In this document: positions 8,659 to 28,112 of the stretch, piece after piece
How the letters are laid out: every line of letters starts with the position of its first letter
How positions within the stretch are numbered: the stretch's first letter is position 1
NCBI GenBank assembly: GCA_963816535.1
Contig: CAWFKW010000007.1
Coordinates: forward strand, 85,675 to 149,674
DNA from: an uncultured Ignavibacteria bacterium
Lineage (GTDB): Bacteria; Bacteroidota; Ignavibacteria; Tepidaquicellales; OLB5
Reading direction: 5' to 3'
Length of the DNA: 64,000 nucleotides
Made by a program: the position numbers and the translations under genes
Notes under the pieces: model-generated
Seen by the model: the letters and a program-made list of their open reading frames with translations, nothing else
The model's database searches: none
Told to the model about the DNA's origin: nothing

Positions 8659-10101
8659 ATGAAAAACACAAAATTAATTCGTCTTCTGAAATCATTCGAT
8701 AAAAATGAATTCACTGATCTCAGAAGTTTTGTAAAATCTCCTTTCTTTAATAAAAGGCATAAGGTAACTGAGTTACTTGAAGCCCTTTGCAAATATTACC
8801 CCTCATTCAAAGTATCTGAAATTCCAAAAGAAAAAATTTTCGCAGCCGTTTATAGGAACGCAAAGTATAGTGATGAATTAATGCGGAACCTTATTTCACA
8901 CCTGTATAAACTTGCAGAAGAATATCTTGAACAAAAAGGATTCAGAGATGACTTCATTAACAGGAAAAGATATTTACTTAAGGAGCTAACGCAAAGGGAC
9001 CAGTTCAAACTGTTTGAAAAAAATTTAAAGATAACTAACGACTATCTTAGCCGGAACAAAATACTGGACAGCGAATATTTTCTTAAACATTATTTCATCG
9101 AGCTTGAAGTAATACACTTTCTTAACAGGAGTAAAAGCGCTCCGTTCCTTGTAAATGATAACGCGCAGAAGATCGCCGATAACCTGCTTCATTTTTTCCT
9201 GATCGCAATGATGGGAATAAATTCATACATGATAAACCAGTCGAAGAATGCTTTTGATTATGATTTCAAAATGTCATTTCTCTCAAAGATACTTGAGCAT
9301 ATAGAAGAGAAAGGCTATGAGCACATGCCTCACATATTGATGCACTACAACAGTATAAAATTATTAATGACCGGGGAAGAGCGCTATTTTTACGGGTTAA
9401 GAAATGTTCTGTTCAATCAAAGAAATGAATTCGGCGCCGTTGATATCTATAATATCTACGTCTTTCTCAACAGTTATTGCTACCGGCGTTACACCGCGGG
9501 GGATATTGAGTTTGCACGGCTCGGGCTTGAGCTGTATAAGAATATGTTTGAAAACAACGCTCACGCTACCCAGGGATATGCACACCATATACTTTTCAAG
9601 AACGTTGTCACCTGCGCGCTGAGCGTTAATAAAACTGCATGGACGGAATACTTTATCGAAAAGTATAAAGACGAACTGCAGGCAGAACACAGGGAGAGCT
9701 CTTATAACCTGTGCAACGCATTTTTGAAATTCCACCTTGGTAATTATAGAGGCGCGCTCACGTGCCTATCTAAAATTACGATGGAAGATATCACTTACAA
9801 AATTGACGCTAAGGCGCTGACCGCAAAGATCTATTACTGCACTAATGCGCATGAATCTCTCCTGTCGCATTTTGATTCATACAGGCATTTTCTGAAAACT
9901 AACCATATGATACCCGCCAGGCTTAAGGAGACTCATTTGGGCTTCGTAAATTATATGTCGCGTTTTGTTAACTTGAAAGATAAGAATGATGAAGCGGCGT
10001 TAGAGGTTCTTTCAGCTGAAATTTCTAAAGCGCCCTATTTTGTTCATAAGTTCTGGCTGCATGATGAAGTAAAAAAACATGCCTGCAATAATGCAGCTTA
10101 A
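8659..10101 (+). CDS. Hypothetical all-helical cytoplasmic protein, paralog family member P1
   Basis: 480 aa with no signal peptide or TM segment. Clear homology to the ORFs at 14093 and 26652. Shared blocks: N-terminal LIRLLKSFDKNEF..FVKSPFFNK, ..KYYPSF, central WTEYFIEKYK, C-terminal FDSYRHFLKTN. Confidence 0.8.
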   Translation: MKNTKLIRLLKSFDKNEFTDLRSFVKSPFFNKRHKVTELLEALCKYYPSFKVSEIPKEKIFAAVYRNAKYSDELMRNLISHLYKLAEEYLEQKGFRDDFINRKRYLLKELTQRDQFKLFEKNLKITNDYLSRNKILDSEYFLKHYFIELEVIHFLNRSKSAPFLVNDNAQKIADNLLHFFLIAMMGINSYMINQSKNAFDYDFKMSFLSKILEHIEEKGYEHMPHILMHYNSIKLLMTGEERYFYGLRNVLFNQRNEFGAVDIYNIYVFLNSYCYRRYTAGDIEFARLGLELYKNMFENNAHATQGYAHHILFKNVVTCALSVNKTAWTEYFIEKYKDELQAEHRESSYNLCNAFLKFHLGNYRGALTCLSKITMEDITYKIDAKALTAKIYYCTNAHESLLSHFDSYRHFLKTNHMIPARLKETHLGFVNYMSRFVNLKDKNDEAALEVLSAEISKAPYFVHKFWLHDEVKKHACNNAA

Positions 10102-11126
10102 TTATTTTTCCCCATCAGGCACAGCGCAAAATAATTTTTGCTGTCAGTCCATTTGTTCAGAACTTTTAAGCCTGCATTGTTAGCTATGTCGTTTATCATT
10201 TGTCCGGTGAATTTGTAAGAGTTCTCGGTATGGATAGTTTCTCCTTTGTAGAAATGAATTTTTTCTTTTATCCCATGGATGCATACGGCTTGTTCGACAG
10301 TCGAAACCAAATGCATTTCCATCCTGCTCTCGGCGCGGTTAAAATAAGCGCGGTGGCGGAATTTTCTGAGGTCAAACTCGCCCCCGAGCTCGTTATTAAT
10401 ACGCTGCAAATGGTTTATGTTGAACATCGCCGTAACTCCCGCCGCGTCATCGTAAGCGGCATTCAGAACAGCCTCATCTTTCACAAGGTCAAAGCCGATT
10501 AGAAAAGTATCGTCTCCCCTCATTATTCTCCCGATGCGCATAACCAGGGCCATAGCATCGGTAAGGTCAAAGTTGCCAATGCTTGAGCCAAGGAACACTA
10601 TCATCTTAGGAAGCGCTGTAATTGAATCCGCAACTTTCAAACCTTCTTCATATTCTGAAAGAACGCCCTTTACGGCCAGCCTGTCAAAATCTTCTATGAG
10701 CGACTCGGAGCTGGGAATGATTATGTCTGAAACATCGATAGGTATATAAGTGAGTCCGCCGTTATTTGAAATGAATGAATTTATTATGTAGCGGGTCTTG
10801 ATGGAAGTTCCTGCGCCAAGCTCTAATATAACACTCTTGCCGTTGTTAATCTTATAGATTTCGCTTGAATGATGTTTTAGTATTTCAGCTTCGGTGCGTG
10901 TTACATAATACTCGGGCGTCTCGCAGATCTTCTCAAACAGCGCCGAACCGGCAGCGTCATAAAAATATTTCGGCAGAAGAAATTTATTGAGAGCCAGCAG
11001 CCCTACTTTAACGTCTTCAGCGAAAGTATTTTTCCTGATACCGCTGTTAACATAGTAGAGCGAGAACCTTGAGCTGATCTCGCGAAGTTCAACTTCAAAT
11101 ATGCTATTTTTATCAGGATTTTCCAA
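10098..11126 (-). CDS. egtD: L-histidine N-alpha-methyltransferase EgtD
   Basis: 342 aa. Contains EYYVTRTEAEIL, ILELGAGTSIKTR (SAM-binding G-x-G), YIPIDVS, FLGSSIGNF, FLIGFDLVKD, AYDDAAGVTAMFNINHL and ETIHTENSYKF. All are hallmark EgtD blocks. Confidence 0.88.
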   Translation of the reverse strand: MENPDKNSIFEVELREISSRFSLYYVNSGIRKNTFAEDVKVGLLALNKFLLPKYFYDAAGSALFEKICETPEYYVTRTEAEILKHHSSEIYKINNGKSVILELGAGTSIKTRYIINSFISNNGGLTYIPIDVSDIIIPSSESLIEDFDRLAVKGVLSEYEEGLKVADSITALPKMIVFLGSSIGNFDLTDAMALVMRIGRIMRGDDTFLIGFDLVKDEAVLNAAYDDAAGVTAMFNINHLQRINNELGGEFDLRKFRHRAYFNRAESRMEMHLVSTVEQAVCIHGIKEKIHFYKGETIHTENSYKFTGQMINDIANNAGLKVLNKWTDSKNYFALCLMGKNN

Positions 11127-11277
11127 TTTTGAAGTAATTTTGTTTGGGCGAAGCTAAATTTAGCAATAATTTCAGGCAGTTCCAAATTTATATTTATAAC
11201 GGATGGACTAAAGCAAATACCCCACTTTCGCATAAAAAGTTCCGGCGCAATTTTATTATTTTTCTATTGGGGCTCTT

Positions 11278-11991
11278 TCACAGCGTATTCAGCTGCTGTG
11301 CTTCATAAACTTTTATTGCCGAGCCTTTTGCCAGTGTAACGTTATACGGTTTTTGAGAATCAATGGATTTCCAGTGATTGCCGTACACCTCGCCGAAATC
11401 AAAATTTGTTTTAAAATCAGTTACCGGGTATATTTCCCAGATCGGATGCTCGACCCTGTATACAAGAGTCTCTCCCGAGCGTGTTGTTCCAAATCCCCAC
11501 TCATGTTCTTTAAAGAAATGTTCCGCCGAATTTTCCGGCGGCATGAAAGATTTATTTTCAGCCTGAACTTTTATTGAGTATTCCTTTGAATCGACTTCAA
11601 TCGTATGAGACAGCAAGATCTTTTCATCGAACGCAATTTCATTCTTCATATTAATCTTCCTGTAATTCTCGTTGAAGAAAATATTTGCTCCCAGAACGGT
11701 AAGATAGTTCGGGACAAACTCGCGTATGAAAACAACTCCTCTTTGTTCTTTGTACTTAACATAGAAACGAAGATTTATTTCAGGGAAGTTAACGTTAAAA
11801 GGAACGTGAATTCCTTTAACTTTGGTATCTGCAAAATCAAATGCCACCAGGCTGATAAACGCAGCGCCGCCGATTGTATCAGGCTGAAATCCTTCGGGCA
11901 GATACGGCTGAAGCGCCTCCGGCTCAACCCGGTAAGAAGCCAAAAGGAGATTCTCCCACTTTGCAGTCAAAAATATTTTTTTATCGCTCAT
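11278..11991 (-). CDS. DUF2071 (YqjF-like) family protein
   Basis: 237 aa. The N-terminus FLTAKWENLLLASYRVEPEALQPYLPEGF...GAAFISLVAFDF is the typical DUF2071 opening. 4-nt overlap with the upstream PAP2 gene. Confidence 0.7.
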   Translation of the reverse strand: MSDKKIFLTAKWENLLLASYRVEPEALQPYLPEGFQPDTIGGAAFISLVAFDFADTKVKGIHVPFNVNFPEINLRFYVKYKEQRGVVFIREFVPNYLTVLGANIFFNENYRKINMKNEIAFDEKILLSHTIEVDSKEYSIKVQAENKSFMPPENSAEHFFKEHEWGFGTTRSGETLVYRVEHPIWEIYPVTDFKTNFDFGEVYGNHWKSIDSQKPYNVTLAKGSAIKVYEAQQLNTL

Positions 11992-12698
11992 TGGGCGGCG
12001 GTCCCTTCGGGGAGAGATTTTCTTAACGACACAAGTACAAATGTTATGAGCAGGGCGTTAATAGCGCCGGCAACCACGTCAGATGGCCAGTGCTGGTTAT
12101 GATAGATTCTGCTCAGGCATGTTATTACTGCGAGCGCGTAGTAAAAAGACTTGAGGTAGATATTCTTAGTTGATGATGCAAGCGCGGCTGAGAGCGCGAA
12201 CGACACCGCTGCATGCCCGGAAAGAAAAGAGAACATATCGTTGTTATCCCAGTTCCATCCGCTGAATGCGAAGTCGCCGTGATTGGTATAAGGCCTCCAC
12301 CTGCCGAACAGAGATTTAAACAACAGTGTGACAAATCCAGAGTAGATGTAAGCCTCGCCCACCAGCAGCCCGGTTTCGCGCATTTTATTTTGTGAAAATA
12401 ACAACCCGCCAAAATACAACGCGATGAATAAGTACAAGGTCAGCGCGCCGTTGCCATACCACCTGCCAAAATCAAATACTTCAGATATCAGGCCGCCCTT
12501 CCAACTAAGGATAAAATCTCTGATCGCATTGTCCAGGTAAAATGCCGATAAGATAATAAAGATGCATACCAGCGAGAGCTGCCAGCGGCTGACCATTTTA
12601 TTTAGCGCCGCCGGATAGACTTTTTTAAAGTCGATCCAAAGCTGCATTAAGTCATTTTTAACAAGTGTGCCCAAAAGTTTGTTCGATAATTCGATCAA
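11988..12698 (-). CDS. PAP2-family membrane phosphatase
   Basis: 236 aa, multi-TM. Acid-phosphatase motifs KSLFGRWRP ... LSGHA ... SRIYHNQHWPSD. Confidence 0.88.
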   Translation of the reverse strand: MIELSNKLLGTLVKNDLMQLWIDFKKVYPAALNKMVSRWQLSLVCIFIILSAFYLDNAIRDFILSWKGGLISEVFDFGRWYGNGALTLYLFIALYFGGLLFSQNKMRETGLLVGEAYIYSGFVTLLFKSLFGRWRPYTNHGDFAFSGWNWDNNDMFSFLSGHAAVSFALSAALASSTKNIYLKSFYYALAVITCLSRIYHNQHWPSDVVAGAINALLITFVLVSLRKSLPEGTAAQ

Positions 12699-12761
12699 TC
12701 AGTCATTGAGCAAAAATAGATATTATTTTAATGAATGTTAATGAAAATTGAGGTCTGCTGA

Positions 12762-12808
12762 TCTTAAATAAGAAAAGGCGCATAACTAATTTCTAAGCGA
12801 TGCGCCTT
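12762..12808 (-). terminator. Intrinsic terminator after the OMP gene
   Basis: aaggcgcat (12775-12783) pairs with atgcgcctt (12800-12808). A T-rich tail follows on the minus strand. Confidence 0.7.
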
Positions 12809-12839
12809 AACGTCAAAAGACTAGGAGGAAGAATATTTT

Positions 12840-13463
12840 TTATAGGTGGAACCAGGCCCCGGCTGTGATTTGAAGTCCAGTTGTTTTAAATGTCTGCGTA
12901 GTAGCGTTCTTTAAAATATTTGATAGCCCGAATGCGTAACCAAACTGACCATACAGGTCTATTTTAGGAGCTATTTTAAAACCAACTCCTCCGCCAATCA
13001 AAAGATTAAAGTCAGTGCCGCTGATACTGCTGCTGATGTCGGTTGAAGTTCCATTTCCACCCTGCGGAGTATCATCAGCGTTTGCTGACATGTTAATTCC
13101 AAGAATCGGACCTGCAATTAAGAATGGCTTAACTTCTGTCAAAGGAAACGTCACTTTCAACAAAACCGGAATTTCAAAATAATTAAGCTTATCTGTAACA
13201 GTCCCGCCGGCCCCGTCATTTCCTGATGCGCCTTTCATAACAAATCTTAATCCTGGCTGTATGGAAATATAATGGCCAAACCCTACATCGAGGTCTGCCC
13301 CAAATATCATACCCGTCCTGGTAGATGTTGAAATATCAGGCGTTGTTGTAAAATTAGCGATGTTAATGCCAACTTCTGGTCCTATAGCTAACTTTACCTG
13401 TGAATAAGAGGCAGTGGTTAACAAGACACCCAGAATTAGAACAAGAAAGATTTTGAATTTCAT
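12840..13463 (-). CDS. Outer-membrane beta-barrel protein (small porin-like)
   Basis: 207 aa with a signal peptide (MKFKIFLVLILGVLLTTASYSQ). Alternating amphipathic beta-strands. Aromatic C-terminal strand ..ITAGAWFHL. SD aaaggaga. Confidence 0.8.
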   Translation of the reverse strand: MKFKIFLVLILGVLLTTASYSQVKLAIGPEVGINIANFTTTPDISTSTRTGMIFGADLDVGFGHYISIQPGLRFVMKGASGNDGAGGTVTDKLNYFEIPVLLKVTFPLTEVKPFLIAGPILGINMSANADDTPQGGNGTSTDISSSISGTDFNLLIGGGVGFKIAPKIDLYGQFGYAFGLSNILKNATTQTFKTTGLQITAGAWFHL

Positions 13464-14092
13464 TTTTTCTCCTTTAGTTTGAAATTATTAATTTAATAAA
13501 TTATGGAACTGTATAACTTGATGTGGCGCTGTATGAAGCGCCTCCGCTATCAACTGTACCTGCATAATAAAATTTCGACTGCTGCCCCGAAGTAACGCCG
13601 ATCTATTCGCTTATCTTGTACGCTGTATCTTTGCTGAATGCGTAATTAGAATTCTGATTTTTATAGTTGTGTCAGATAATAAGGATGAAAAACAGATGAC
13701 CCTTTTACGCAAGATACTCTCTTTTTCATTAAAATTAAATAGTCTAGTTAAATTATTATTAATTATACAATTTTGATTTTATAGTCCGCAAATCTAAATA
13801 AAAATACCCCCAAAGCTTCAAAATTCAGAATTACGTATGGCGATACGATGCTTCTTTATCCCGGAAGTCATTGGGGGTACAACTTTCAAATCTGTGAAAC
13901 ATCACTATCGCCATATTGGGTACAAACATAAGGAAAGCTTCTGAGGAAGTGCAAAGAAAAATAAACGGCAAGTTAGAGAAAAACCGTTTACAGATCATCA
14001 GGATATTTGGGAAAAAACATTTATTTCTGTGGTTTTTTCAAGTTTTATTGTTATTTTGGATCAATCAAATTAGAACATTTTGTAGTATTCAT

Positions 14093-15559
14093 ATGCAGAA
14101 TTTTAAATTAATTGAGCTTTTGAAGACTCTTGATAAGAAGGAAATTCGCCGCCTGGGCGAATTTGTGGAATCGCCGTATTTCAATAAAAATGAAAATGTT
14201 ATGAGGTTGTTCGGGGCTCTTTCAAAATACCACCCGGGGTTTGAGAACAGGAACCTCACAATTGAAAAGCTGTTTAAGAAACTTTTTCCCCGGGATAAAT
14301 ATGATTACCACAAAATAAACAACGTTATATCCGATCTGTACAAGCTTTCGGAAAGGTTCTTTTCCATTCAGAATTTCGAAGAGAAAATGGAATCCGGAGA
14401 CACAGCCGTCCTGAAGACGCTGACCGATAAAAAGCTGCATGGAATTTTCAAACAAAAATTCAAACAGCTTGAAGAAATAAACGAAAGCGCTGAATTCAAG
14501 GATGAAATGTACTGGTTCAATAAATACAGGCTGATGGCCGAGCGCCGCATAAATCTTTTCGATATCGCGCCCAACACACAGCTTGAGCTTATGCAGGAAG
14601 AATTTAACAGGTTTCTGAAATATACCCTGATAAAACTCCTCCGGTTTTACTCGACGATGATACATGAGGTAAGGCAAAACAACGTCGTTTACACTTTAAG
14701 GATGTTCGAAGAAGCTCTGGAGTTCCTCGAAAAAAATGAACGGGAAAACGGAGGCTTTAAGGAACCGCCGATACTTTCTGTGTATAAGAACAGCATCTAC
14801 CTGGCCCTCAGGGAAGAAAGAAAATATTACGATGAGCTTGCAGCCCTGAAGAACAAATACTTTAATGAGTTCACGCCTCTTGACCGGAAATTTATTTTCA
14901 CACACCTTTTCGGTTTCATAGCTCATAAACTTATGACCGAGGGCGACTATTCATATTACATCGAAGCGTTTGAACACCATAAAGAAACGCTTGAACGGGG
15001 CATACAGGACGAGAGCGACATATCATATTTCGATTTTGTGAATTATGTAAAATCGGCATGCTCTGTCGGCGAGTTTGACTGGGCGCGGCAGTTCATAGAA
15101 AAATATAAGCACGTTCTGCCGGAAGAAGAAAAGAACAACACATTGAATTTCAGCTACGGGACCATCGAACAGAAATCAGGCAACGCGGAAAAGGCGCTGG
15201 GGTTCTACGCCAAAACTAATTTCTCAAACTTTATCATGAAGGAACAGGTGAAGATATTACAGTGCAGGCTGCTCTATGAACTGGGAATGGATGAGCAAGC
15301 TCTTGCCGCCATAGATTCGTTCAGGCATTATCTTCAAAGGGAAAAGCTGATAACTGACGACCATCGCGGGTTATTCTACCTCTTCCTGAAATACCTGACA
15401 CAGATGATAAAAGTCCGGGAATCGCGCTCAAGCTCTGAATACGATTTTATGGTTGAAAAGCTCCGCAAAGACGTGACTGAGATGAAGATGAATATTTTCG
15501 GCGTGAGGTTATGGGAGCTGGAACAGATAGACAAACTAAACAAACCTGGATCTAAATAA
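14093..15559 (+). CDS. Hypothetical all-helical cytoplasmic protein, paralog family member P2
   Basis: The ORF track starts at 13916. The ATG at 14093 (MQNFKLIELLKTLDKKEIRRLGEFVESPYFNK) aligns with the N-termini of P1 and P3 and gives 488 aa. Shared blocks: GEFDWARQFIEKYK, IDSFRHYLQ. Confidence 0.8.
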   Translation: MQNFKLIELLKTLDKKEIRRLGEFVESPYFNKNENVMRLFGALSKYHPGFENRNLTIEKLFKKLFPRDKYDYHKINNVISDLYKLSERFFSIQNFEEKMESGDTAVLKTLTDKKLHGIFKQKFKQLEEINESAEFKDEMYWFNKYRLMAERRINLFDIAPNTQLELMQEEFNRFLKYTLIKLLRFYSTMIHEVRQNNVVYTLRMFEEALEFLEKNERENGGFKEPPILSVYKNSIYLALREERKYYDELAALKNKYFNEFTPLDRKFIFTHLFGFIAHKLMTEGDYSYYIEAFEHHKETLERGIQDESDISYFDFVNYVKSACSVGEFDWARQFIEKYKHVLPEEEKNNTLNFSYGTIEQKSGNAEKALGFYAKTNFSNFIMKEQVKILQCRLLYELGMDEQALAAIDSFRHYLQREKLITDDHRGLFYLFLKYLTQMIKVRESRSSSEYDFMVEKLRKDVTEMKMNIFGVRLWELEQIDKLNKPGSK

Positions 15560-16088
15560 AAAACTTCTCGGCCAGGGCCCACGCGGCAAGCGTCATGCCG
15601 TCAAATATTTCATTCGATCTTATTTTTGCCTGCAGCTCGCTTACAGTTAGCTCAACCGGCTCAAACTCCTCATGGTCGTCTTTGGAAAACTCGGCAGACG
15701 GCCTTAGGTTCCTAGCTATGAAAACATGGCATATCTCGTCTGTAACGCCTATGTAAGGATTAAACGAACCAACCTTCTCAAAATCTCCGTCCATACCAAC
15801 CTCTTCGATAAGCTCTTTACGCGAAACCTCTTCGGGCGTCTGCCCTTCTTTTATTCCGCCGCCCGGGAAACCAATACTCTCGCGCCTGCTCAGGTACCTG
15901 AACTGATTGACCATGAGAATTCTACCGCCGGCTAAAACCGGGACCGTAAATGCCGAACCGGCTGTATGGCAGATATGATAGTCGCCTTCCCTTCCGTCTT
16001 CGACCATATACCTGTCAACAATGTAAGTCCACCAGGGATTTTTGAGCTTGATGGCGCTTGTTAAAGTCTTCCAGTGTTTTAAAGCCAT
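15552..16088 (-). CDS. NUDIX hydrolase
   Basis: 178 aa. Nudix box GGGIKEGQTPEEVSRKELIEEVG. Confidence 0.88.
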   Translation of the reverse strand: MALKHWKTLTSAIKLKNPWWTYIVDRYMVEDGREGDYHICHTAGSAFTVPVLAGGRILMVNQFRYLSRRESIGFPGGGIKEGQTPEEVSRKELIEEVGMDGDFEKVGSFNPYIGVTDEICHVFIARNLRPSAEFSKDDHEEFEPVELTVSELQAKIRSNEIFDGMTLAAWALAEKFFI

Positions 16089-16091
16089 ATC

Positions 16092-16463
16092 CTAATTCTT
16101 AGTTCCATTTCCGCCGGCTCCCAGCTTTTTTAGCTGTTCAATTTCTTTATTCAGGAAGAAGCTGAGAAGGATTCGTATCACCACTATCCCGCCAAGCTCT
16201 ATAAGCTCTTCTGTGGTTGGTTTTAAAATAGTCTGGATAATATCGGCGGCGATAAGGAACTCAAGCCCGAACAAAATGTAATAGCCGAAATCATGCCTGA
16301 TAATATCAAGCGCAGAAATGTCAAACTTTTTTGAAAGCCGCTTAAACTCTGCCCTGATGAAATGAATTACAGCAAGCAAGGCGCCATATATCATTATGGC
16401 AAAGCTTATATCTTCCAGGGCATGCGCAATGTAAAGAATGTATTCGTAAAAATAATCAACCAT
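16092..16463 (-). CDS. Small integral membrane protein (DUF1622-like)
   Basis: 123 aa with 3-4 TM helices. The family call is from memory of similar ~120-aa membrane proteins and is tentative. Confidence 0.55.
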   Translation of the reverse strand: MVDYFYEYILYIAHALEDISFAIMIYGALLAVIHFIRAEFKRLSKKFDISALDIIRHDFGYYILFGLEFLIAADIIQTILKPTTEELIELGGIVVIRILLSFFLNKEIEQLKKLGAGGNGTKN

Positions 16464-16473
16464 ATTTGTTCAG

Positions 16474-16905
16474 CTACTTAATTGTATCTCCGATCACGGT
16501 AACCATTATCTTCCGCCTGCCGCCGTTATTGCGGTGCTCGCACAGGTAGATGCCCTGCCACGTGCCAAGGTTAAGCCTGCCGTCTGTAACAGGCGCAGTA
16601 ACCGACGCGCCGATGATAGATGACTTAATATGCGAGGTCATGTCATCGCTGCCTTCGAGAGTGTGAAGATAATAGCTGGCCGATTCAGGGACCATCTTGT
16701 TAAAATGAGTTTCCATATCGGCTCTTACGTCGGGGTCGGCATTCTCATTTATCGTAAGCGAAGCCGACGTATGTTTAATAAAAAAGTGTGCCAGCCCCGC
16801 CCTGAAAAGCTTTAGTTCGGGAATTTCCTTTTGCAGCTCGTTAGTCACAAGGTGGAAACCCCTCTTCTTTGGCGAGAGTATTATTTCTTTTTGAACTACT
16901 TTCAA
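16474..16905 (-). CDS. YjbQ/UPF0047 family protein (secondary thiamine-phosphate synthase-like)
   Basis: 143 aa. Contains KRGFHLVT..., HTSASLTINENADPDVRADME, GTWQGIYLCEHR. TTG start overlapping the stop of a small upstream ORF. Confidence 0.85.
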   Translation of the reverse strand: MKVVQKEIILSPKKRGFHLVTNELQKEIPELKLFRAGLAHFFIKHTSASLTINENADPDVRADMETHFNKMVPESASYYLHTLEGSDDMTSHIKSSIIGASVTAPVTDGRLNLGTWQGIYLCEHRNNGGRRKIMVTVIGDTIK

Positions 16906-17042
16906 GCTTCTTCTTTTTTGTTCACCCGGTCTTCAAGTTTCTTTGCCTTAACATCATCCATCGATGTCTTAACTATCATGAACATATATAATCCAAAAAG
17001 AAGAACGCCGATCACGCAAATTACTACTAGCGCTACATCCAT
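16902..17042 (-). CDS. Possible 46-aa single-TM peptide
   Basis: Below the ORF-track size cutoff. MDVALVVICVIGVLLFGLYMFMIVKTSMDDVKAKKLEDRVNKKEEA. Its TGA overlaps the TTG start of yjbQ (cTTGA), which suggests translational coupling. Confidence 0.35.
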   Translation of the reverse strand: MDVALVVICVIGVLLFGLYMFMIVKTSMDDVKAKKLEDRVNKKEEA

Positions 17043-17050
17043 TATTTTTT

Positions 17051-19678: not shown

Positions 19679-19694
19679 GAATATTCAGTGTAAA

Positions 19695-19743: not shown

Positions 19744-20014
19744 TTTGGTTACACAAATATAATTAAATATTTAGAAAAAGGGAGAAAAAAAATACCGTGA
19801 TTACGTTAATTGGGATAATTGGTTAAATAGTAAAAAAAAATTCACAAGGCACGAAGACACAAAGTGGCGATTAATAAAATACGGCATCTATCGTCCCATT
19901 AGAGCAGCAATTTCGTAGGGCTGAAATTTATCCTCTATTAAAATTTAAATTATTAGATTCCCGATCCCGCCTAACAAAACGGCGGGCAGGCGAGTCGGGA
20001 ATGACAAGCAAAAC

Positions 20015-20048
20015 AACCTGTAACTTGTAACCTGTAACTTGTAACCTG
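20015..20048. repeat. 14-nt tandem repeat (aacctgtaacttgt x ~2.4)
   Basis: Read directly from the sequence. Adjacent to a cccgcc...ggcggg / gggaatgac hairpin at ~19962-20005. Confidence 0.85.
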
Positions 20049-20135
20049 CGACTGGTTTCATCATTTAATCCGCAATCGACATTCCGCAATCCGAAATCGA
20101 GAGATTGCTTCGTCGCTGGCGCTCCCCGCAAATTG

Positions 20136-22082
20136 TTACTCTTCGTCTTCGCGCAAATGCTCAAGCGTTGAAAAATCTTCAAGCGTGGTTGTATCTCCGG
20201 TGACTTTTCCCTGCGTTGCTATTTCACGAAGCAGGCGCCGCATAATTTTGCCGCTGCGGGTTTTTGGCAAAGCTTCTGTAAAGCGAATTTCATCGGGCCT
20301 GGCCAGAGAGCCTATTTGTTTCACAACCCATTCTTTCAGTTCTGAGTTAAGCTCATCGCTCGGTTTGTATTTGCTTTCAAGCGTTACAAAAGCAAATATC
20401 GCGCTGCCTTTCAGGTCGTCGGGCCTGCCGACCACAGCGCTTTCGGCGACTTTCGGGTGCGCGACCAGCGCCGATTCAACTTCCGCGGTCCCGATCCTGT
20501 GTCCGCTTACATTAATAACATCATCAACTCTTCCCATTATCCAGAAGTACCCGTCTTTATCGCGCCGCGCGCCGTCGCCCGTGAAGTACACGCCTTTGAA
20601 CTCGCTCCAGTACTGCTTCTTGTAGCGTTCATCATCGCCCCAGATAGTTCTCAGCATTGCGGGCCACGGATGCTTGCAAACAAAATAGCCGCCTTCGTTT
20701 ACTTTAGCTTTATGCCCTTCTTTTGAAACCACTTCCATCTGGATGCCGAAGAACGGAAGCGTAGCGGTTCCCGGTTTTGTCGGCGTAGCGCCGGGCAGCG
20801 GCGTAACCATGATTGCTCCGGTTTCGGTCTGCCACCAGGTATCAACTATCGGGCATTTACCTTTGCCGATAACTTTATAATACCACATCCACGCTTCGGG
20901 ATTAATGGGTTCGCCCACCGTTCCAAGAAGCCTGAGCGAATCTAATTTATGCCGAAGCGGCCATTCCTCCCCCCACTTAATGAATGCGCGTATAGCCGTA
21001 GGCGCAGTGTAGAAAATATTTACTTTGTACTTATCTATGATTTCCCAGAACCTGTCGGGATTCGGAAAATTCGGGGCGCCTTCGTACATTAAAGTAGTGG
21101 CGCCGTTTTGAAGCGGCCCGTAAATAACATACGAGTGACCGGTCACCCATCCCGCATCGGCTGTGCACCAGTAAACGTCTTCATCTTTCAGGTCAAAAAC
21201 GTATTTTGTAGTGATGTAAGTCATAACCGAATAGCCGCCGGTTGTATGCAAAATTCCTTTTGGCTTACCGGTTGTGCCGCTGGTGTAGAGTATGTAAAGC
21301 GGGTGCTCCGAATCCAGCTGCTCGGCCGGGCAAACATCATCAACGCCCTGCATCAATTCATGATACCAGTGGTCGCGTCCGTAATGCATCTGTATTTCCT
21401 GCCCGGTGCGCTGAACAACAATAACATTTTCAATTGTAGGACAATTGGGCATGGCCTCATCAACGTTTGCTTTCAGATTAATTATTGTTCCCCTGCGGTA
21501 ACAACCGTCTGAGGTGATAACCATCTTCGCTTCGGCGTCGTTAATTCTGTCAACCAGCGCAGAGGCGGAGAATCCGCCGAACACTATAGAATGCACAGCG
21601 CCAATTCTGGTACAGGCGAGCATCGCAACGGCAATTTCAGGAATCATCGGCATGTAGATGCAGACCCTGTCGCCTTTCATGATTCCCATTTTCTTCAGCG
21701 CGTTCGAGAATTTACAGACCTGGCGGAAGAGTTCCTGGTAGGTCCAGGTAGCGGTTTCACCGTTTTCTCCTTCCCAGATAATTGCGGCTTTATTTCTGCG
21801 CCATGATGAAATGTGCCTATCGAGGCAGTTATAGCTCATGTTTATTTTGCCGCCGACAAACCACTTAGAGTGCGGGGCTTTCCAATCGAGAACCTTTTTC
21901 CATCTCCTGAACCAGTAAAGCTCTTCGGCAATTTTAGCCCAGAATTTTTCGGGATGTTTAATTGACTCCGCGTACATTTTTTTGTACTGGGCCATAGATT
22001 TAATATGCGCTCGCGCGGAAAACGGCGCCTTTGGCTTGAAAACTCTTTTTTCTCTTTCTAATGAAGTTATACGTTGGTCCAT
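20136..22082 (-). CDS. acs: Acetyl-CoA synthetase (acetate-CoA ligase, AMP-forming)
   Basis: 648 aa. AMP-binding signature [11 protein letters not shown] and full-length similarity to Acs (..WWQTETG.., ..[13 protein letters not shown].., ..[12 protein letters not shown]..). Confidence 0.96.
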
Positions 22083-22209
22083 AAAATATTCAGTAATAGT
22101 TTAATTGAAGTGAAAGTAAGCAATAATACGGGGTTTTTGTAAAAGTTTCCAGAGATTAGCAGATTATTGAGACTTGGTTTTAGCCAAGCCGAAATCCCGC
22201 TTGCGGGAT

Positions 22210-22254
22210 CAGATTGAAGATTATCAGATTGAAGATTATTAGATTGAAGATTAA
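22210..22254. repeat. 15-nt tandem repeat (cagattgaagattat x3)
   Basis: Copies at 22210-22224, 22225-22239 and 22240-22254 (third copy tagattgaagattaa). Preceded by the hairpin atcccgc-ttgc-gggat. Confidence 0.9.
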
Positions 22255-22279
22255 GGAGATGGGTCTATACTAAAACTCA

Positions 22280-22316
22280 GACCACCCCTAACCCCCTTCT
22301 TATAAAAGGAGGTGGG
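22280..22316. repeat. GC-rich hairpin repeat (family B, opposite orientation)
   Basis: gaccacccctaacccccttcttataaaaggaggtggg aligns with the reverse complement of 6459-6494. Confidence 0.8.
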
Positions 22317-22391
22317 AACAATTTCTAAACTATTTTTTATTTTTGTTTCAATTCGTAGCACGAACTTAAAGTCGTGCCACGAAGCTTGTAA

Positions 22392-23246
22392 TTATTTATC
22401 GCCGGCTTTTTTAATTGGGTCCACGGTTTGATCTATGCAATTGCTTCCGAATTCTTTTTTGGACCACTCGGACCTTACAGTTAAGCAAAGGTGATAATCA
22501 CCTGGCGGAAACACACCGCTTGCAAGTATCGAGTCTCTTTTTTGTTCCATTTTGAAACGGTTCCAGACAGAATGTTTCCAGGTTGATGACACGTCCTGCG
22601 TTTCACCCGGTTTAATGCTGAACGCGCGGGAGCAAGCTTCGAGCATAGTTTCGCCATCATAAGTCAGAATGATATACACTTCGACAATTTGTTTAAACTT
22701 TGATTTATTAGTAATCGTAGAATTCCACAGGTCATCAAGCGCTAATTGTCCTTTTGGCGGCTGTTTGGCTTTAATTTCCAGGACGGCATCATTCTCGTAA
22801 TTATCGACTGTGTGATTGACGCATGTATTCCCAAGCGGATTATTAAAATCCGGCTGGTTCTTTGTATTTGCCGCATACGCCGTCATGCAGATCTTATAAT
22901 CGCCGATCAGGAAATCATTTTCGCGTATTATCATGCCTTCTTTAATATTGCTGTACCAGCCTTTCAGCGGCGGCTCTTCGAATTTTAGATCAATGTCGAT
23001 CGATTCACCGGAAGCAATTGAATAATTTTTAGTCGAGCTTTTATATAACAATGTATCGTTATATGTTACGTCTAATGTAAAGCAAACATTTTGATTGTCC
23101 TTACCTTTGTTTACCGCGTCAAACTTCCATAGGTCGTTTCCGTTAAGCGTTCCTTTTGGAAAATCTTTAAATTTGATCTCGATCTGCGAATATGATACTG
23201 CAGCAAACATTACAAACAATAAAAGAAATGATAATACTTTTTTCAT
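22392..23246 (-). CDS. Secreted hypothetical protein with an internal two-domain duplication
   Basis: 284 aa with a signal peptide. Two ~130-aa homologous halves: EIKFKDFPKGTLNGNDLW...SIASGESIDI...GDYKICMTA...GNTCVNHTVD and EIKAKQPPKGQLALDDLW...SIKPGETQDV...GDYHLCLTV...GSNCIDQTVD. Confidence 0.7.
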   Translation of the reverse strand: MKKVLSFLLLFVMFAAVSYSQIEIKFKDFPKGTLNGNDLWKFDAVNKGKDNQNVCFTLDVTYNDTLLYKSSTKNYSIASGESIDIDLKFEEPPLKGWYSNIKEGMIIRENDFLIGDYKICMTAYAANTKNQPDFNNPLGNTCVNHTVDNYENDAVLEIKAKQPPKGQLALDDLWNSTITNKSKFKQIVEVYIILTYDGETMLEACSRAFSIKPGETQDVSSTWKHSVWNRFKMEQKRDSILASGVFPPGDYHLCLTVRSEWSKKEFGSNCIDQTVDPIKKAGDK

Positions 23247-23325
23247 GACAATTGCCGGTTAGTTAGATTACGAATTTTTAGAATCTGTAAACATAACGCC
23301 TTTTTGCAAGAAATTCAATAACTTA

Positions 23326-23363
23326 CAATAAAAAACCTGCCTCCGTAATGTCAGAAGCAGGTT
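23326..23363 (-). terminator. Intrinsic terminator after the 23423-24136 gene
   Basis: aacctgc (23334-23340) pairs with gcaggtt (23357-23363). A T-run follows on the minus strand (plus-strand A-run 23331-23335). Confidence 0.6.
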
Positions 23364-23422
23364 AACAATTATTATGATTTTTAATCGAATATATTCATCC
23401 GGAGCTGTACAAAATTGAACAT

Positions 23423-24136
23423 CTAGTAATCCCGATAAATATAATCAGAAAGCCGTTCCGGCTGCGGTCCGCCGTTATAATACCATTTAGCGCTCGCGTT
23501 AGGCTCGGTGTTTGATTCAGAAATTTTGGTTGGCTGTCCTCCATAGACATCGGTATAGAGAATGACCACTTTGTTCCAGCATGCCAGTCCGTTGACCGAG
23601 GCATTTACCGTATCGTGAATCAATGAACCGCATACACTTGTACCGTTCAGTGTAAATGCTACAGTAGAATAAACAAAAGCATCGACAAATTCGCCTGCTG
23701 CATACCCGTTTGTATCGTAATTACTTCTAAGCAGCGCTCCTATCTGCGTATTAGTACTGTCATAAACTTCAAAAAAGGCGACGGCTAGTTTTGCGCCTGC
23801 GGGATAGGTGATAGTGGGATGGCAAGTCGTATCAACGACAGGAGTCAGCAAGCCTCCGGCAGGAGGGGTGGTAAGATTTATGGAAAAGGCTCCCGTTGAA
23901 TTGATCGTGCCGGTATCAACAACATACCTGTTCGTATGCGAGTAGTCATAAACGGCAAGATACAAATATACTTTACCAGTATGCGTCCAGTTAAAGATCT
24001 GGCCGCTCAGGCTTGTCACACAACTGCCGCCGCTGTTAGTAGTGGTAGTGTTTGTGGTGGTGTCACTGTTGCAGGAATATACAATAACTAACGCAACAAG
24101 CGCCACTAAAGCCGCAAAATGAATGGTTGTCTTCAT
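23423..24136 (-). CDS. Hypothetical lipoprotein
   Basis: 237 aa. Signal peptide plus lipobox-like ..LVIVYSCNSD. Thr/Asn-rich linker. No recognised family. Confidence 0.65.
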   Translation of the reverse strand: MKTTIHFAALVALVALVIVYSCNSDTTTNTTTTNSGGSCVTSLSGQIFNWTHTGKVYLYLAVYDYSHTNRYVVDTGTINSTGAFSINLTTPPAGGLLTPVVDTTCHPTITYPAGAKLAVAFFEVYDSTNTQIGALLRSNYDTNGYAAGEFVDAFVYSTVAFTLNGTSVCGSLIHDTVNASVNGLACWNKVVILYTDVYGGQPTKISESNTEPNASAKWYYNGGPQPERLSDYIYRDY

Positions 24137-24297
24137 TTTATTCCTTTGTTTAATTGATAAAAAACTGCTTATTGACTTAGCGCAAATTTAACACATTTAA
24201 ATTTTACAAACATTTCTGAATTGAAACAGTTTAGAAGCTGACCTCTTTATAATATCTCCACCTTATTAGTAAGGGGGAGACGAAAAAGAGCTTTCCC

Positions 24298-26286
24298 CTA
24301 TTTAATAAGCATCATTTTCCTCGTTTGAACGTAACCATCAGTACGCATAGTATAAAAATAAACGCCCGATGGATAATCAGCCGCGTTCCATTGGATCTCA
24401 TACGAGCCCTGCTGTAGCTGCGAATTTACAAGTTCCGCAACTTTCTTTCCGGTAATGTCATAGACTGTAACTTTTACAAAACCGGTCTTAACTACCTGCA
24501 AACCAATTTTAGTTGAAGGATTAAACGGATTAGGATAATTTTGCTTCAAACTAAAACCACCAGGAACATCCTGCGATATATTCCTGACTGAAACCAAAGT
24601 TGAAGTAAGATCTAATGTCAGAGTCCATGCATTCAAAGTTCCGGTGTGTCCCGTGGTTCTGTCATATACTTTCAGTATCCATGCGCCTGAGGGATCGAAG
24701 TTAATAAACTGTGAGAGCGGTTTGGTTGGCCTGAAATTTCCAGTAAATGGAGGCGCTCCGTTTGAAATTAAAGTTAATGATGAATCACTTAGAGCTGTGC
24801 CAATAAAATTAGCCCCGCTTCCGCCAAGCTGATATATTAATGTATCTGTATTGGTAAAATGTAATAATGATATTTCAAGGTCTCCGTCATTTGGATAAAT
24901 AATTGTATCAATTGAAACATTAACGTACGAAACATAATAAGAAGATAGATCGCTGCCGGCGACTGTTATTGTATCCAGCGTACTTTGGTTTCCCTGAATT
25001 ATTCCATTCAAATTACTGTGAGAGTTTACTAAAATATAATTCGAGGGTACAAAGACCCAGACCGCCCCGGCATTTGTATTATCGGCGACCCCGCCATCTA
25101 AAACGGTAACCCCGTCTGACGAAATAGCAACAGATGTGCCCTGCCCCGAAAATCCGATTGCGCCTGTGCCGGCAAGTTTTGAACCAAACTGCGACCAAAC
25201 GTTGCCGCTGCGGGTAAAAGACCAGATTGCGCCTGCTCCGCTATTATCTGCAGGGCCGCCGGCAACAAAAGTATTGCCGTCTGAAGAAATTGATACTGAA
25301 AGACCTAACTGGGGAGAACCATTCGCTCCGGCTCCGGTAAGTTTGGGACCCTGTTGATACCACAGACTGCCGCTCCGGGTAAATACCCAGACAGCCCCTG
25401 CATTATTATTATCATGGAAGGCGCCGACTATTGTTGTATTTCCATCAGAAGATGTTGCGACTGAAATCCCCTGCCCTGACATTCCACTACCTCCTTCGCC
25501 AACAAGCCTTGAGCCCTGCTGTTCCCATGCGCCGGACGTTCTGGTGAATACCCAAACCGCTCCTGTCTGGTTATTGTCATATGGTCCGCCTTCTATAGCG
25601 GTATTCCCGTTTGCAGAAATTGCAACCGAACTTCCCTGAGAAGCGCTTCCAACAGCTCCTGTTCCAATAAGCTTAGAACCCTGTTGAGTCCATACTCCCC
25701 CATTTCTGACAAATATCCAAACCGCCCCGGTGTTAGATTGATCATAAGAACCGCCTTCAATAATTGTATTACCATCAGAAGATATAGCAACAGAATATCC
25801 CTGCTGTGAATTAATTCCGCCGGTGCCTGCATGCTTTGTACCCTGTTGAGTCCACACGCCCGCAGATCGGGTAAAGATCCATATTGCTCCCAGGTATCCG
25901 TTATCTCCAATCCCACCTTCTACAACTGTATTTCCGTCAGAAGATATAGCAACCGAGTAACCCTGGTAGCCAGTTCCAACAACTCCAGTTCCAACAAGTT
26001 TAGCGCCTTGCTGAGTCCAGACGCCGCCGCTTCGTGTGTAAATCCAGATGGCTCCGGCAAATCCATTATCGCCAAAGCCGCCAACGACAGCGGTATTGCC
26101 GTCTGCTGAAATTGCAACTGAGTTGCCTTGATCAGTATTCCCTATTCCTTCGGAACCAACCAGTTTAGGACCCTGCTGAATAAATTGTGCATAAAGTAAG
26201 TTTGGGATAAAGATTCCGGCTAAGAGCAAGATAACCAATAATTTTTCTTTACCCGATAAAAATCGGGAGTTGTTGTTGTTTGCCAT
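24298..26286 (-). CDS. T9SS cargo protein: FG-GAP-like repeats + P-domain-like module + T9SS C-terminal sorting domain
   Basis: 662 aa. About 8-9 copies of a ~52-aa repeat (GAVW(I/V)FTRSGG.WTQQG.KL.GTGA.G...QG.SVAISSDGNT...GG..DN...). P-domain-like block (YPNDGDLEISLLH...GAWILKVYDRTTGHTGTLNAWTLTL) homologous to that of 6507-8360. [18 protein letters not shown]...GVYFYTM...RKMMLIK. Confidence 0.88.
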   Translation of the reverse strand: MANNNNSRFLSGKEKLLVILLLAGIFIPNLLYAQFIQQGPKLVGSEGIGNTDQGNSVAISADGNTAVVGGFGDNGFAGAIWIYTRSGGVWTQQGAKLVGTGVVGTGYQGYSVAISSDGNTVVEGGIGDNGYLGAIWIFTRSAGVWTQQGTKHAGTGGINSQQGYSVAISSDGNTIIEGGSYDQSNTGAVWIFVRNGGVWTQQGSKLIGTGAVGSASQGSSVAISANGNTAIEGGPYDNNQTGAVWVFTRTSGAWEQQGSRLVGEGGSGMSGQGISVATSSDGNTTIVGAFHDNNNAGAVWVFTRSGSLWYQQGPKLTGAGANGSPQLGLSVSISSDGNTFVAGGPADNSGAGAIWSFTRSGNVWSQFGSKLAGTGAIGFSGQGTSVAISSDGVTVLDGGVADNTNAGAVWVFVPSNYILVNSHSNLNGIIQGNQSTLDTITVAGSDLSSYYVSYVNVSIDTIIYPNDGDLEISLLHFTNTDTLIYQLGGSGANFIGTALSDSSLTLISNGAPPFTGNFRPTKPLSQFINFDPSGAWILKVYDRTTGHTGTLNAWTLTLDLTSTLVSVRNISQDVPGGFSLKQNYPNPFNPSTKIGLQVVKTGFVKVTVYDITGKKVAELVNSQLQQGSYEIQWNAADYPSGVYFYTMRTDGYVQTRKMMLIK

Positions 26287-26651
26287 TATGAAATTCTCCT
26301 TTGGTTTATTTTTTTAAAACTTCAAATTACGTTCTTAAGCAGAAAGTAATTGCGTTTCTAACAGGCTTTAAACTCCCATCCGTCACGTAAAAACCGGTAT
26401 AGGAGTTTTGCCTGCCCACTGTGAGATGGGAATTAAAATAGAAAAGTCAGTTACGAAGGTTTTTTCTCACAGTGTCTTTTAACGTGACGTAAAATACAGT
26501 TTGCAACCAACTCAATCCAAAGAAACTTTTAAAAGGTTGTCGGAAAAAGTCATTGATTGTGTAGCTGGTAAATGACCCTAAATAATTACGTTTTGAAGTA
26601 TTTTCTTAAAAAAGAACAACTTAAATTATCGGAAAATAAACGGCATGTTAA

Positions 26652-28112
26652 ATGTATAATTCCCGGTTAGTGGAGCTTTTAAAAACTCTCTCGGTTTATG
26701 AGCTGAATCGATTTGAGAAATTTGTTGCGTCGCCTTTTTTCAACATGAATGAAGAAATAACCGCTTTATTCAGGATCCTGAAAAAGTACAGTCCTAACTA
26801 CGAACATAAAAACATATCGAAGGAGAAAGTTTTTAAGGCGATTTTTCCGGAACAAAAATATAACGATAAAAAACTAAGGTACCTTTCTTCCGGAGCGCTG
26901 AAGCTTGCAGTCGAATTCCTTGGGGAGTTAAATTACAGGCAGGACATATTCGGAACAAATATCTATTCCATCAAAGAATTAATTGAAAGAAAACAAATAA
27001 GGATCGCGGAAAAAAAAATTGCCGAAGCCGGGAAAAATCTGACCCCGACAAATTATCCCAACGAAGTATACTATTATAACAAACACTTGCTTAAAAGCCA
27101 GAGTAACTATCTGGCCCTTACTCAGAATAAGACCCTGAAACCTGATGATCTGGTGCAAGAGGGGGAAAACATTATTCTCTTACTATTCGTTGTTCTTATG
27201 CAAACGACTTATAACTTATCAATTATGGAGAACACTTATAATCTCAACAACCCGAATAATATTATTACCGACTTTCTCTCGTCTATTAATATCGACGAGT
27301 TTATACAAAAAGCATCATTATCGAAACAAAGCGCTACCAGGATATACGAGCTTTATCACAATATGATGCAGCTTAAACGGGAACCGCTGAAAGACGAGCC
27401 ATTTAAGAAACTAAAAGCTTCTTTGGAATATTACCTGGGCATACTGAACAAACAGGACCAGTATAATTTATTTATGGCTCTTGAATCATTTTGCGCGTAC
27501 CGGATATTAAAGGGGGGTTCGAACTTCAAAAAAGAAAAATTTGAGCTTTTAAAACAATCGCTCCGCTATAATATACTCTCTCCTTCTCAAAGCGGATTTT
27601 TCCCAACCGCTGATTTCAGGAATTTTGTTATAGAAGGCGTTGATGCAGGAGAGTTTGACTGGGCAGAAGAATTCGTTAAAAATTATATTCACAAGGTTGA
27701 TGCAAAACAAAAAGAAAATATATTGAATCTTAGTTATGCGACTATAAATTTCGGAAAGAAAAAATACGACATTGCAATTGATAATCTTTCACGGATAACG
27801 GCCGGCAATGTTTTTTTCAAGTATGACATTAAGAGCTTTATGCTGAAAATTTATTATGAAATGAACCTTATAGAACCTGCATATGAACTGATTGATACTT
27901 ACAGGCATTTTCTGAAAACAAATACATCCCTCTCGAAAAGAAGGAAAGATTCGGTTTTGAACTTCATAAGATTCACAAACCTGTTAATAAAAATTAAAAA
28001 CGGGGATAATTCAGTTAGTTACGATCAGTTAAAAAAAGATATTGCCGAAACAGGGTGGATAACGAACAAAGAATGGCTGCTTGAAAAGCTGGATGAGGCA
28101 TTTAAGCGGTGA
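26652..28112 (+). CDS. Hypothetical all-helical cytoplasmic protein, paralog family member P3
   Basis: 486 aa. Contains MYNSRLVELLKTLSVYELNRFEKFVASPFFNM, KKYSPNY, GEFDWAEEFVKNY and IDTYRHFLKTN. Homologous to P1 and P2. Confidence 0.8.
   Translation: MYNSRLVELLKTLSVYELNRFEKFVASPFFNMNEEITALFRILKKYSPNYEHKNISKEKVFKAIFPEQKYNDKKLRYLSSGALKLAVEFLGELNYRQDIFGTNIYSIKELIERKQIRIAEKKIAEAGKNLTPTNYPNEVYYYNKHLLKSQSNYLALTQNKTLKPDDLVQEGENIILLLFVVLMQTTYNLSIMENTYNLNNPNNIITDFLSSINIDEFIQKASLSKQSATRIYELYHNMMQLKREPLKDEPFKKLKASLEYYLGILNKQDQYNLFMALESFCAYRILKGGSNFKKEKFELLKQSLRYNILSPSQSGFFPTADFRNFVIEGVDAGEFDWAEEFVKNYIHKVDAKQKENILNLSYATINFGKKKYDIAIDNLSRITAGNVFFKYDIKSFMLKIYYEMNLIEPAYELIDTYRHFLKTNTSLSKRRKDSVLNFIRFTNLLIKIKNGDNSVSYDQLKKDIAETGWITNKEWLLEKLDEAFKR

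Follow-up and report, generated by a model that had tools for sequence, protein, structure and literature searches.

An unannotated family of TPR-like helical proteins encoded divergently from exported-protein genes in Ignavibacteria and Bacteroidota: candidate regulators of surface-protein genes

Introduction

Why should a bacterium keep several diverged copies of a protein that resembles no named family, each encoded back to back with the gene of an exported protein? The question is raised by a 64,000-nucleotide stretch of DNA from an uncultured Ignavibacteria bacterium (GenBank contig CAWFKW010000007.1, positions 85,675 to 149,674; "the window" below denotes this whole stretch), which encodes three such proteins, here called P1, P2 and P3 (P for any member of the family). 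A first-pass annotation, made by reading the window alone, had described them as whole-length paralogs and had proposed a repeated two-gene module consisting of a cytoplasmic, possibly tetratricopeptide repeat (TPR)-like protein and a surface protein, the former being a regulator, chaperone or sorting factor for the latter. We report here that the module recurs at about 80 other genomic loci. The large family to which P1-P3 belong probably consists of dedicated regulators that control surface-protein genes in Ignavibacteria and Bacteroidota.

Results

P1, P2 and P3 belong to a large unannotated family

The three plus-strand open reading frames (ORFs; Table 1) encode proteins that align pairwise over their full lengths in BLASTP with 27-28% identity (E values 6e-42, 6e-50 and 1e-50), in agreement with the paralogy first proposed, and the shared sequence blocks quoted at that time map to those alignment columns of the family that are best conserved. 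A family hidden Markov model (HMM) found no members in the window other than these three. An N-terminal signal-like segment was looked for in P1, P2 and P3 and none was found. The earlier statement that the proteins lack both signal peptides and transmembrane helices thus stands for the N terminus but needs qualification for P3, which has a hydrophobic helix (residues 174-192, Kyte-Doolittle value 1.95) without a conserved counterpart in P1 or P2.

When a 12-sequence profile was run against 1.84 billion cluster representatives (50% identity clusters), 11,939 clusters were matched at E ≤1e-3 and 6,499 at E ≤1e-30. The best 150 matches were all full-length and of similar size (459-523 residues), indicating that the architecture of the family is fixed; domain fusions sought with the N-terminal domain gave only short fragments and no new architecture. 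Pfam, NCBIfam, PADLOC and PHROGs returned no family for P1-P3, only sub-threshold TPR- or ARM-like matches in Pfam and noise in PHROGs. No relatives were found on IMG/VR viral contigs and a literature search for the family or its gene arrangement found nothing relevant. The family is without name, annotation or literature despite comprising more than 10,000 clusters.

A scan of GTDB (one genome per species, with a profile made from a six-sequence alignment) gave 79 loci, all from Ignavibacteria or Bacteroidota. The Bacteroidota loci were mainly from Saprospiraceae, Lewinellaceae and Chitinophagales, plus one Flavobacteriaceae metagenome-assembled genome (MAG). Two cultured carriers were recovered, Neolewinella persica DSM 23188 and N. 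agarilytica DSM 24740, the family members of which (WP_020567115.1 and WP_090171861.1, respectively) are labeled "hypothetical protein" in RefSeq. Several MAGs occur twice in the scan and paralogs cluster in L017, L034, L053, L063 and L079 (L numbers denote sampled loci). Two or three members lie within about 13 kb of one another in L017, L034, L044, L053, L063, L067, L079, L090 and L095. Some of these members are in fragments, which suggests frameshifts or pseudogenes, and the multi-copy loci point to local duplication and decay of the module.

The upstream neighbor of P is usually a divergent gene encoding an exported protein

In the window each P gene has a minus-strand exported-protein gene as its divergent neighbor (its partner), as had been claimed: by Pfam two of these encode type IX secretion system (T9SS) cargo proteins and the third an outer-membrane protein. 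Por_Secre_tail, the cargo C-terminal domain (CTD), scored 8.3e-8 in the P1 partner and 1.4e-10 in the P3 partner and is absent from the P2 partner. The C-terminal halves of the P1 and P3 partners are homologous (39% identity, E 8e-67). The P-domain earlier assigned to both cargo proteins is clear in the P3 partner, whereas in the P1 partner P_proprotein gave only a weak match (E 0.019).

The arrangement generalizes. ORF calling in 86 non-redundant loci gave 86 complete family genes, 80 of which had an upstream neighbor. That neighbor was divergent in 71 of the 80 cases versus a background of 26% in the same loci (binomial p 1e-31); most of the nine non-divergent neighbors encode fewer than 100 residues and are probably spurious ORFs. 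Downstream neighbors were evenly split between convergent and co-directional (40 each). Taken together, these orientations indicate that P is a stand-alone transcription unit which shares its promoter region with the gene to its left.

A T9SS CTD was found in 43 of the 80 upstream neighbors versus 48 of the 453 remaining genes of these loci (odds ratio 9.8, p 6e-17) and in 12 of the 80 downstream neighbors. When a protein was scored as exported if it had a CTD or if a simple heuristic gave it a signal peptide, 58 of the 59 divergent partners of at least 150 residues qualified, compared with 124 of 323 background genes (p 3e-20). Adjacency to exported-protein genes is thus strongly preferential, and the gene calls of the source databases gave the same picture. 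Among 54 partners Pfam detected Por_Secre_tail in 40, CHU_C in 2 (these sets may overlap), DUF7619 in 22 and DUF11 in 18, together with dockerin, cohesin, SBBP and SprB repeats. The CTD was adjacent to P in 37 of 49 Bacteroidota loci; in Ignavibacteria-like loci the association was less strong, a CTD being adjacent in 6 of 31 and within two genes in 12 of 31. Most partners are large (600-1500 residues) and repeat-rich. A few small ones do not look exported, namely a DUF1059 protein in L010 and uncharacterized proteins in L015 that lack a signal peptide by the heuristic. The divergent spacers have a median length of 194 nt, with many of 74-150 nt and a minimum of 74 nt.

A predicted promoter motif lies at a set distance from P

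In a k-mer comparison the strand-specific 8-mer CAAAGAAA was present in 15 of 70 P-upstream regions versus 7 of 284 control intergenic regions, the controls being scored on both strands (p 4e-7). Each of the three window regions has a copy (at 8558, 13952 and 26518). In the family the 8-mer is mostly found 100-135 nt from the P ATG, and its distance to the partner start is variable. Read on the partner strand the 8-mer is TTTCTTTG, the predicted -33 box of a leftward TTTG-N21-TAnnTTTG promoter. A -33 TTTG with a -7 TAnnTTTG is the Bacteroidota-type promoter of Bacteroides and Flavobacterium. From the sequence we infer this promoter assignment and, with it, leftward transcription start sites (TSSs) near 8523, 13917 and 26483. 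In all, the window contains five copies of the composite pattern, where 0.11 would be expected, and the P-upstream sites account for three of them. One subgroup of loci has an additional conserved block at about -40 to -70 of the leftward promoter.

The other two matches to the composite pattern (TTTCTTTG-N20-22-TAnnTTW), at 621-655(+) and 5925-5959(+), have no family gene nearby. The match at 621-655 has GCGTTGAGAG in common with the promoter upstream of P1 and falls where a minus-strand ORF for a small membrane protein (606-911) has its 3' end. A fourth module, considered at this site and at about 57 kb, was rejected: there is no family ORF, and the matches fall within coding sequence. A second element, TGTTGAA(A/C)AA, is found as a direct repeat in the Neolewinella-group loci L046, L051, L071 (about -114 and -12) and L086 (-111 and -10 from the P ATG), one copy being just 5' of the P start codon. 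In three loci having 80-83-nt spacers the second copy lies within the first codons of the partner, and L053, L079 and L084 have a single copy.

Translation signals also distinguish the two genes. None of the 25 P genes of Ignavibacteria-like loci is preceded by a Shine-Dalgarno (SD) sequence, whereas 7 of 17 divergent partners are (p 7e-4), as are 42 of the 234 remaining genes (p 0.02). In the window the strong SD AAAGGAGAA precedes all three partner starts (8361-8380, 13464-13485 and 26287-26305) and none precedes P1-P3. The contrast suggests that P is synthesized at a low level, and is of low abundance, relative to its partner.

P is predicted to be a TPR-like solenoid with a basic N-terminal domain

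The AlphaFold2 model of P3 is entirely helical (pLDDT 87, pTM 0.76). Foldseek comparison of the full model with the PDB gave generic TPR, ARM, HAT and PPR solenoids (best E 4e-3, TM ≤0.37). Homology to a housekeeping enzyme was also looked for, and no enzyme fold was present among the PDB matches of the full model or of the N-terminal domain. By sequence profile (150 sequences) one TPR unit is recognizable, at residues 342-381 (E 6.8e-6), and this single motif was the only profile match of P in the PDB; the Pfam models TPR_1, TPR_2 and ARM_TT21 gave sub-threshold matches in 4-7 of 28 members. The original suggestion of a TPR-like helical protein thus holds insofar as P is modeled as an all-alpha solenoid having TPR proteins as its best PDB matches, but the resemblance is limited to one TPR unit by profile and to the low TM scores.

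A low-confidence linker near residues 94-104 sets off a five-helix N-terminal domain (N-domain). This is the most conserved region of P and is basic: its net charge averages +4.9 and is positive in 93% of the 150 members considered. The central part of P is neutral to acidic, and basic character returns in the C-terminal tail. The most conserved columns are E17, S27-P28, N31, P48, W337, F341, YYE401-403, D415, H419, W475 and K479. As the near-invariant residues are largely aromatic or proline (S27-P28, P48, W337, F341, F438 and W475), the pattern looks structural rather than catalytic. P is thus modeled as a TPR-like solenoid carrying a basic, conserved five-helix N-domain.

The partner diverges faster than P

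Locus L008 encodes an ortholog of P3 (88% amino acid identity). Nucleotide identity between the window and L008 is 86% for the P3 coding sequence, 88% for the intergenic region and 70% for the partner (L008:401-2410, minus strand), within which the passenger region is only about 62% identical and the CTD about 80%. The surface protein thus evolves much faster than the P gene. The similarity ends at the P3 stop codon and continues past the partner, and the unit of synteny is partner, intergenic region and P.

Inverted repeats fall in the predicted partner leaders

The first-pass annotation had also noted long-range inverted repeats upstream of each P gene. These are present at all three (perfect 10-nt repeats and 11-13-nt repeats with one mismatch, 160-290 nt upstream of the ATG), but they are individually marginal and are not a hallmark of the family. 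The best repeat of the P1, P2 and P3 regions was equaled in 1, 6 and 1 of 100 dinucleotide shuffles, respectively, and so each taken alone is marginally beyond chance. As a family-wide structured element the repeats were rejected because the best-repeat z-scores of the family were below those of 174 control regions. Given the predicted TSS positions, the repeats fall in the first part of partner mRNA leaders of about 160, 450 and 195 nt, and in our view they are better read as possible 5' leader structures of the partner mRNAs. The repeat pairs cross, implying alternative, mutually exclusive structures. The minus-strand fold is better than the plus-strand fold in two regions (z -2.2 and -4.3 versus -0.9 and -2.6, the -4.3 being that of the partner 3 leader) and equal to it in the third (-2.8 for both). 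In L008 one hairpin is preserved by a compensatory change whereas pairing is disrupted in the long-range repeat overlapping the -7 box.

Searched against Rfam, the whole window gave no match at gathering threshold; by E value, the three regions gave only chance miRNA-like matches. Two metagenome scans for close P orthologs suitable for analysis of leader covariation found none for P1 and only distant relatives for P3. An invertible promoter (phase variation) was considered and rejected. Of the repeats, only short AT-rich ones flank the promoter, and these inconsistently, whereas the GC-rich ones do not. Moreover, the window and L008 are collinear, and P is not a recombinase.

Features of the modules and their surroundings

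The coordinates of the module features are collected in Table 1. The decayed CTD reported after P3 was recovered as a relic having an in-frame stop.

Table 1 Positions of the P genes, their partners and associated features in the window, and of a conserved small ORF in other loci
Feature	Position	Strand	Basis or remark
P1, 480-residue family member	8659..10101	+	ORF and translation; family HMM E 1e-145; matches gene call of source record
P2, 488-residue family member	14093..15559	+	ORF; family HMM; start as in gene call of source record, longer TTG-start ORF from 13916 set aside
P3, 486-residue family member	26652..28112	+	ORF; all-helical AlphaFold model, pLDDT 87
P1 partner, T9SS cargo: beta-propeller (Rax2/DUF5122), weak P-domain, type A CTD	6507..8360	-	Pfam
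P2 partner, small outer-membrane beta-barrel protein (207 residues)	12840..13463	-	Pfam OMP_b-brl_2, 2.6e-19
P3 partner, T9SS cargo: FG-GAP, P_proprotein, Por_Secre_tail (type A CTD)	24298..26286	-	Pfam
Predicted leftward promoter, partner 1: TTTCTTTG-N21-TATTTTTG	8530..8565	-	CAAAGAAA 101 nt upstream of P1 ATG
Predicted leftward promoter upstream of partner 2: TTTCTTTG-N21-TATGTTTG	13924..13959	-	Motif and composite pattern
Predicted leftward promoter, partner 3: TTTCTTTG-N21-TATTTTAC	26490..26525	-	Conserved in L008
Inverted repeats 8390-8400/8434-8444 and 8401-8413/8487-8499, crossing	8390..8499	-	In predicted ~160-nt leader, partner 1
Inverted repeats 13805-13813/13871-13879 and 13836-13845/13906-13915, crossing	13805..13915	-	Start of predicted ~450-nt leader
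Inverted repeats 26417-26426/26465-26474, 26370-26379/26399-26408 and 26381-26393/26477-26489	26367..26489	-	Start of predicted ~195-nt leader, partner 3
Decayed T9SS CTD fragment with in-frame stop, convergent with P3	28127..28303	-	tblastn 41% identity over 59 residues to CTD; translation
Conserved small ORF	L001:5608-5862, L021:5602-5889, L044:5487-5699	-	Core KTSKGYRLKNSTHxLIERIQ...SKDTVISRAVKLYY
Conserved small ORF, further loci	L095:5586-5855, L027:5571-5813, L024:1123-1347	-	On cargo strand

One subgroup of loci has a three-gene variant in which a small ORF is inserted between P and a 343-residue CTD cargo gene (five of six loci; the L044 cargo has 340 residues). In L021 and L095 the gene beyond the small ORF is larger and no CTD was detected in it. 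The encoded protein looks like a strand-helix-helix DNA-binding protein of the ribbon-helix-helix (RHH) type rather than a peptide, the one supporting match being Pfam PSK_trans_fac at E 0.018. In most of these loci two or three GTGCAC palindromes are found at the predicted leftward TSS.

The genes separating the modules of the window are ordinary housekeeping genes. Module 1 is flanked by an EgtB-like gene (3661-5034, plus strand; FGE-sulfatase and DinB_2 domains) and an EgtD-like gene (10098-11126, minus strand; Methyltransf_33); between these two ergothioneine-pathway genes lie a HAD hydrolase gene and the cargo and P1 genes. The P3 partner gene contains internal DNA repeats of 64-67% identity. 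A tblastn search with the CTD of the L008 cargo found more T9SS CTD proteins at about 51402-51692 and at 53280-54917, both on the minus strand and neither adjoining a family member. At positions 36001-40000 the GC content falls to 0.30-0.34, from about 0.41 elsewhere, and both GC skew and AT skew are strongly negative.

Discussion

What, then, might P do? We propose that P is a locus-specific regulator of the divergent exported-protein gene which acts at the DNA level, a reading that the sequence evidence leads us to hold at a probability of roughly 45%. Each P gene, the back-to-back promoter region and the exported-protein gene on the left (mostly T9SS cargo) would form one unit. The basic five-helix N-domain would bind nucleic acid, its likely target being a conserved block of about 30 bp just upstream of the leftward -33 box that overlaps the promoter of P itself, and the TPR-like solenoid would serve in binding of a signal or partner or in oligomerization. 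In a variant of this scheme P might exert control after initiation, through the leader RNA. A fixed P gene with its bidirectional promoter, partners that are biased but not exclusive in class, the lack of SD sequences, diverged paralogs and a basic N-domain are together as expected of a dedicated cis regulator. Moreover, the partners are not always T9SS cargo (the outer-membrane protein, DUF1059 and small proteins), which is easier to reconcile with control of a gene than with handling of a single protein class. The evidence is indirect, but it favours a regulator over a chaperone or sorting factor.

Several points weigh against a DNA-level regulator. P has no recognizable DNA-binding domain, no helix-turn-helix family having been matched in Pfam by the window proteins or by 28 members, and the N-domain modeled alone (pLDDT 86) gave neither a PDB match by Foldseek (best E 3) nor a profile match. 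The leftward promoters upstream of P1 and P2 are already perfect consensus sequences and there an activator is seemingly unnecessary. If the shared CAAAGAAA were the site recognized by all paralogs, locus specificity would be lost. The neighbor statistics were obtained with a crude ORF caller and our own CTD HMM (Pfam agrees for the 54 partners), and the loci were sampled via two peptide patterns.

The near-consensus promoters of the window followed by long structured leaders make control at the RNA level possible, and P could be a helical-repeat RNA-binding protein of PPR, IFIT or HAT type that acts on the partner 5' leader by antitermination or through effects on stability or translation. 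Promoters of consensus strength and then 160-450 nt of leader beginning with crossing helices would suit such a protein, as would the better minus-strand fold in two of three regions, the compensatory change in the L008 hairpin and the basic character of both N-domain and C-terminal tail; the Foldseek matches include the HAT repeats of Rrp5, IFIT5 and a designed PPR protein (E 0.01-0.07). However, those matches are generic solenoids, strong repeats are not enriched in the intergenic regions of the family relative to controls and many of the spacers are too short to hold long leaders. Given also that there is neither an Rfam family nor a set of close orthologs with which to seek covariation, we consider the RNA-binding explanation unlikely.

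By analogy with the class II TPR chaperones of type III secretion, P might instead be a cytoplasmic TPR chaperone or targeting factor that keeps its beta-rich partner pre-protein competent for Sec export. The fold, the provision of one P per exported and mostly large, repeat-rich partner and the paralogy of modules 1 and 3 in both of their genes speak for this, but P is divergent from, rather than co-transcribed with, its partner in 89% of cases and the SD contrast argues against matched stoichiometry. Some of the supposed clients are a 207-residue outer-membrane protein or small proteins lacking signal peptides, the general Sec route takes T9SS cargo across the inner membrane, and the partner passenger diverges much faster than P. 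On these grounds a chaperone seems less likely still. Lowest in our estimation, and improbable, is that the adjacency has no functional meaning, P being a scaffold or housekeeping protein and the bidirectional promoter a favored landing site or driver for surface genes. Such a view would account for a constant P and promoter block beside a varying left gene and for a P devoid of any known domain. Genomes would hardly be expected to carry a housekeeping scaffold in many diverged copies (20 kb of the window holds three), and the partner class is extremely biased toward exported proteins.

Should P prove to be a regulator, it would offer a handle on the expression, and possibly the switching, of surface proteins in Saprospiraceae and Ignavibacteria, groups that abound in wastewater, in soil and on marine particles. 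It would also bring a new nucleic-acid-binding fold and an annotation rule for thousands of "hypothetical proteins", and the more than 10,000 clusters would constitute a major unrecognized regulatory layer of the cell surface in these phyla. To our knowledge, the T9SS regulators characterized so far (the PorXY-SigP cascade) target the secretion machinery, and the control of individual T9SS cargo genes is largely unexplored. P is among the larger wholly unannotated protein families and is tied one-to-one to cargo and surface genes. Its members may be previously undescribed one-component regulators that combine a new nucleic-acid-binding N-domain with a TPR-like sensor body and control T9SS cargo and surface genes one by one in Saprospiria/Chitinophagales and Ignavibacteria; toward this fuller proposal we are slightly more reserved. 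The culturable carriers N. persica and N. agarilytica make the role of P directly testable.

Among known systems, the LysR-type regulators are similar in gene arrangement: the regulator gene is divergent from its target, the promoters are back to back and there are many paralogs each tied to its own neighbor. P shares the hallmark of divergent transcription from the neighbor, but it lacks HTH_1 and the LysR_substrate or periplasmic-binding-like effector domain (Pfam and NCBIfam) and is all-helical and TPR-like. In protein architecture P is reminiscent of the RNPP regulators of Firmicutes (Rap, NprR, PlcR and PrgX/Rgg), which are cytoplasmic, have a small helical N-domain plus a TPR solenoid and often control genes of secreted proteins. 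NprR and Rap are among the Foldseek matches of the P3 model (E 0.06-0.1, TM ≤0.35), although they score no better than other TPR proteins. P differs in lacking an HTH_XRE-type N-domain and in the phyla where it is found, and no signaling-peptide gene was noticed beside P, though no systematic search was made. As the defining DNA-binding domains of both families are absent, P belongs to neither.

The PorP/SprF-like T9SS partners of Bacteroidota likewise provide a cargo-specific gene adjoining each cargo gene. These are, however, outer-membrane beta-barrels whose genes lie downstream of, and are co-transcribed with, those of type B CTD cargo, whereas P is cytoplasmic, all-alpha, divergent and without a signal peptide, and its partners have mostly type A CTDs. 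The class II TPR chaperones of type III secretion systems (LcrH/SycD and IpgC) are cytoplasmic TPR proteins encoded beside a secreted client, but those of LcrH/SycD type have about 160 residues and three TPRs and are co-transcribed with the client, whereas P has 460-520 residues, is divergent, lacks an SD and has a partner exported via Sec. UpxY and UpxZ of the Bacteroides capsule loci are paralogous locus-specific regulators of a surface structure that act with long 5' leaders; UpxY is NusG-like and the first gene of the operon it controls, and has no structural or sequence relation to P. The divergent regulator-target pair as an arrangement is already well known.

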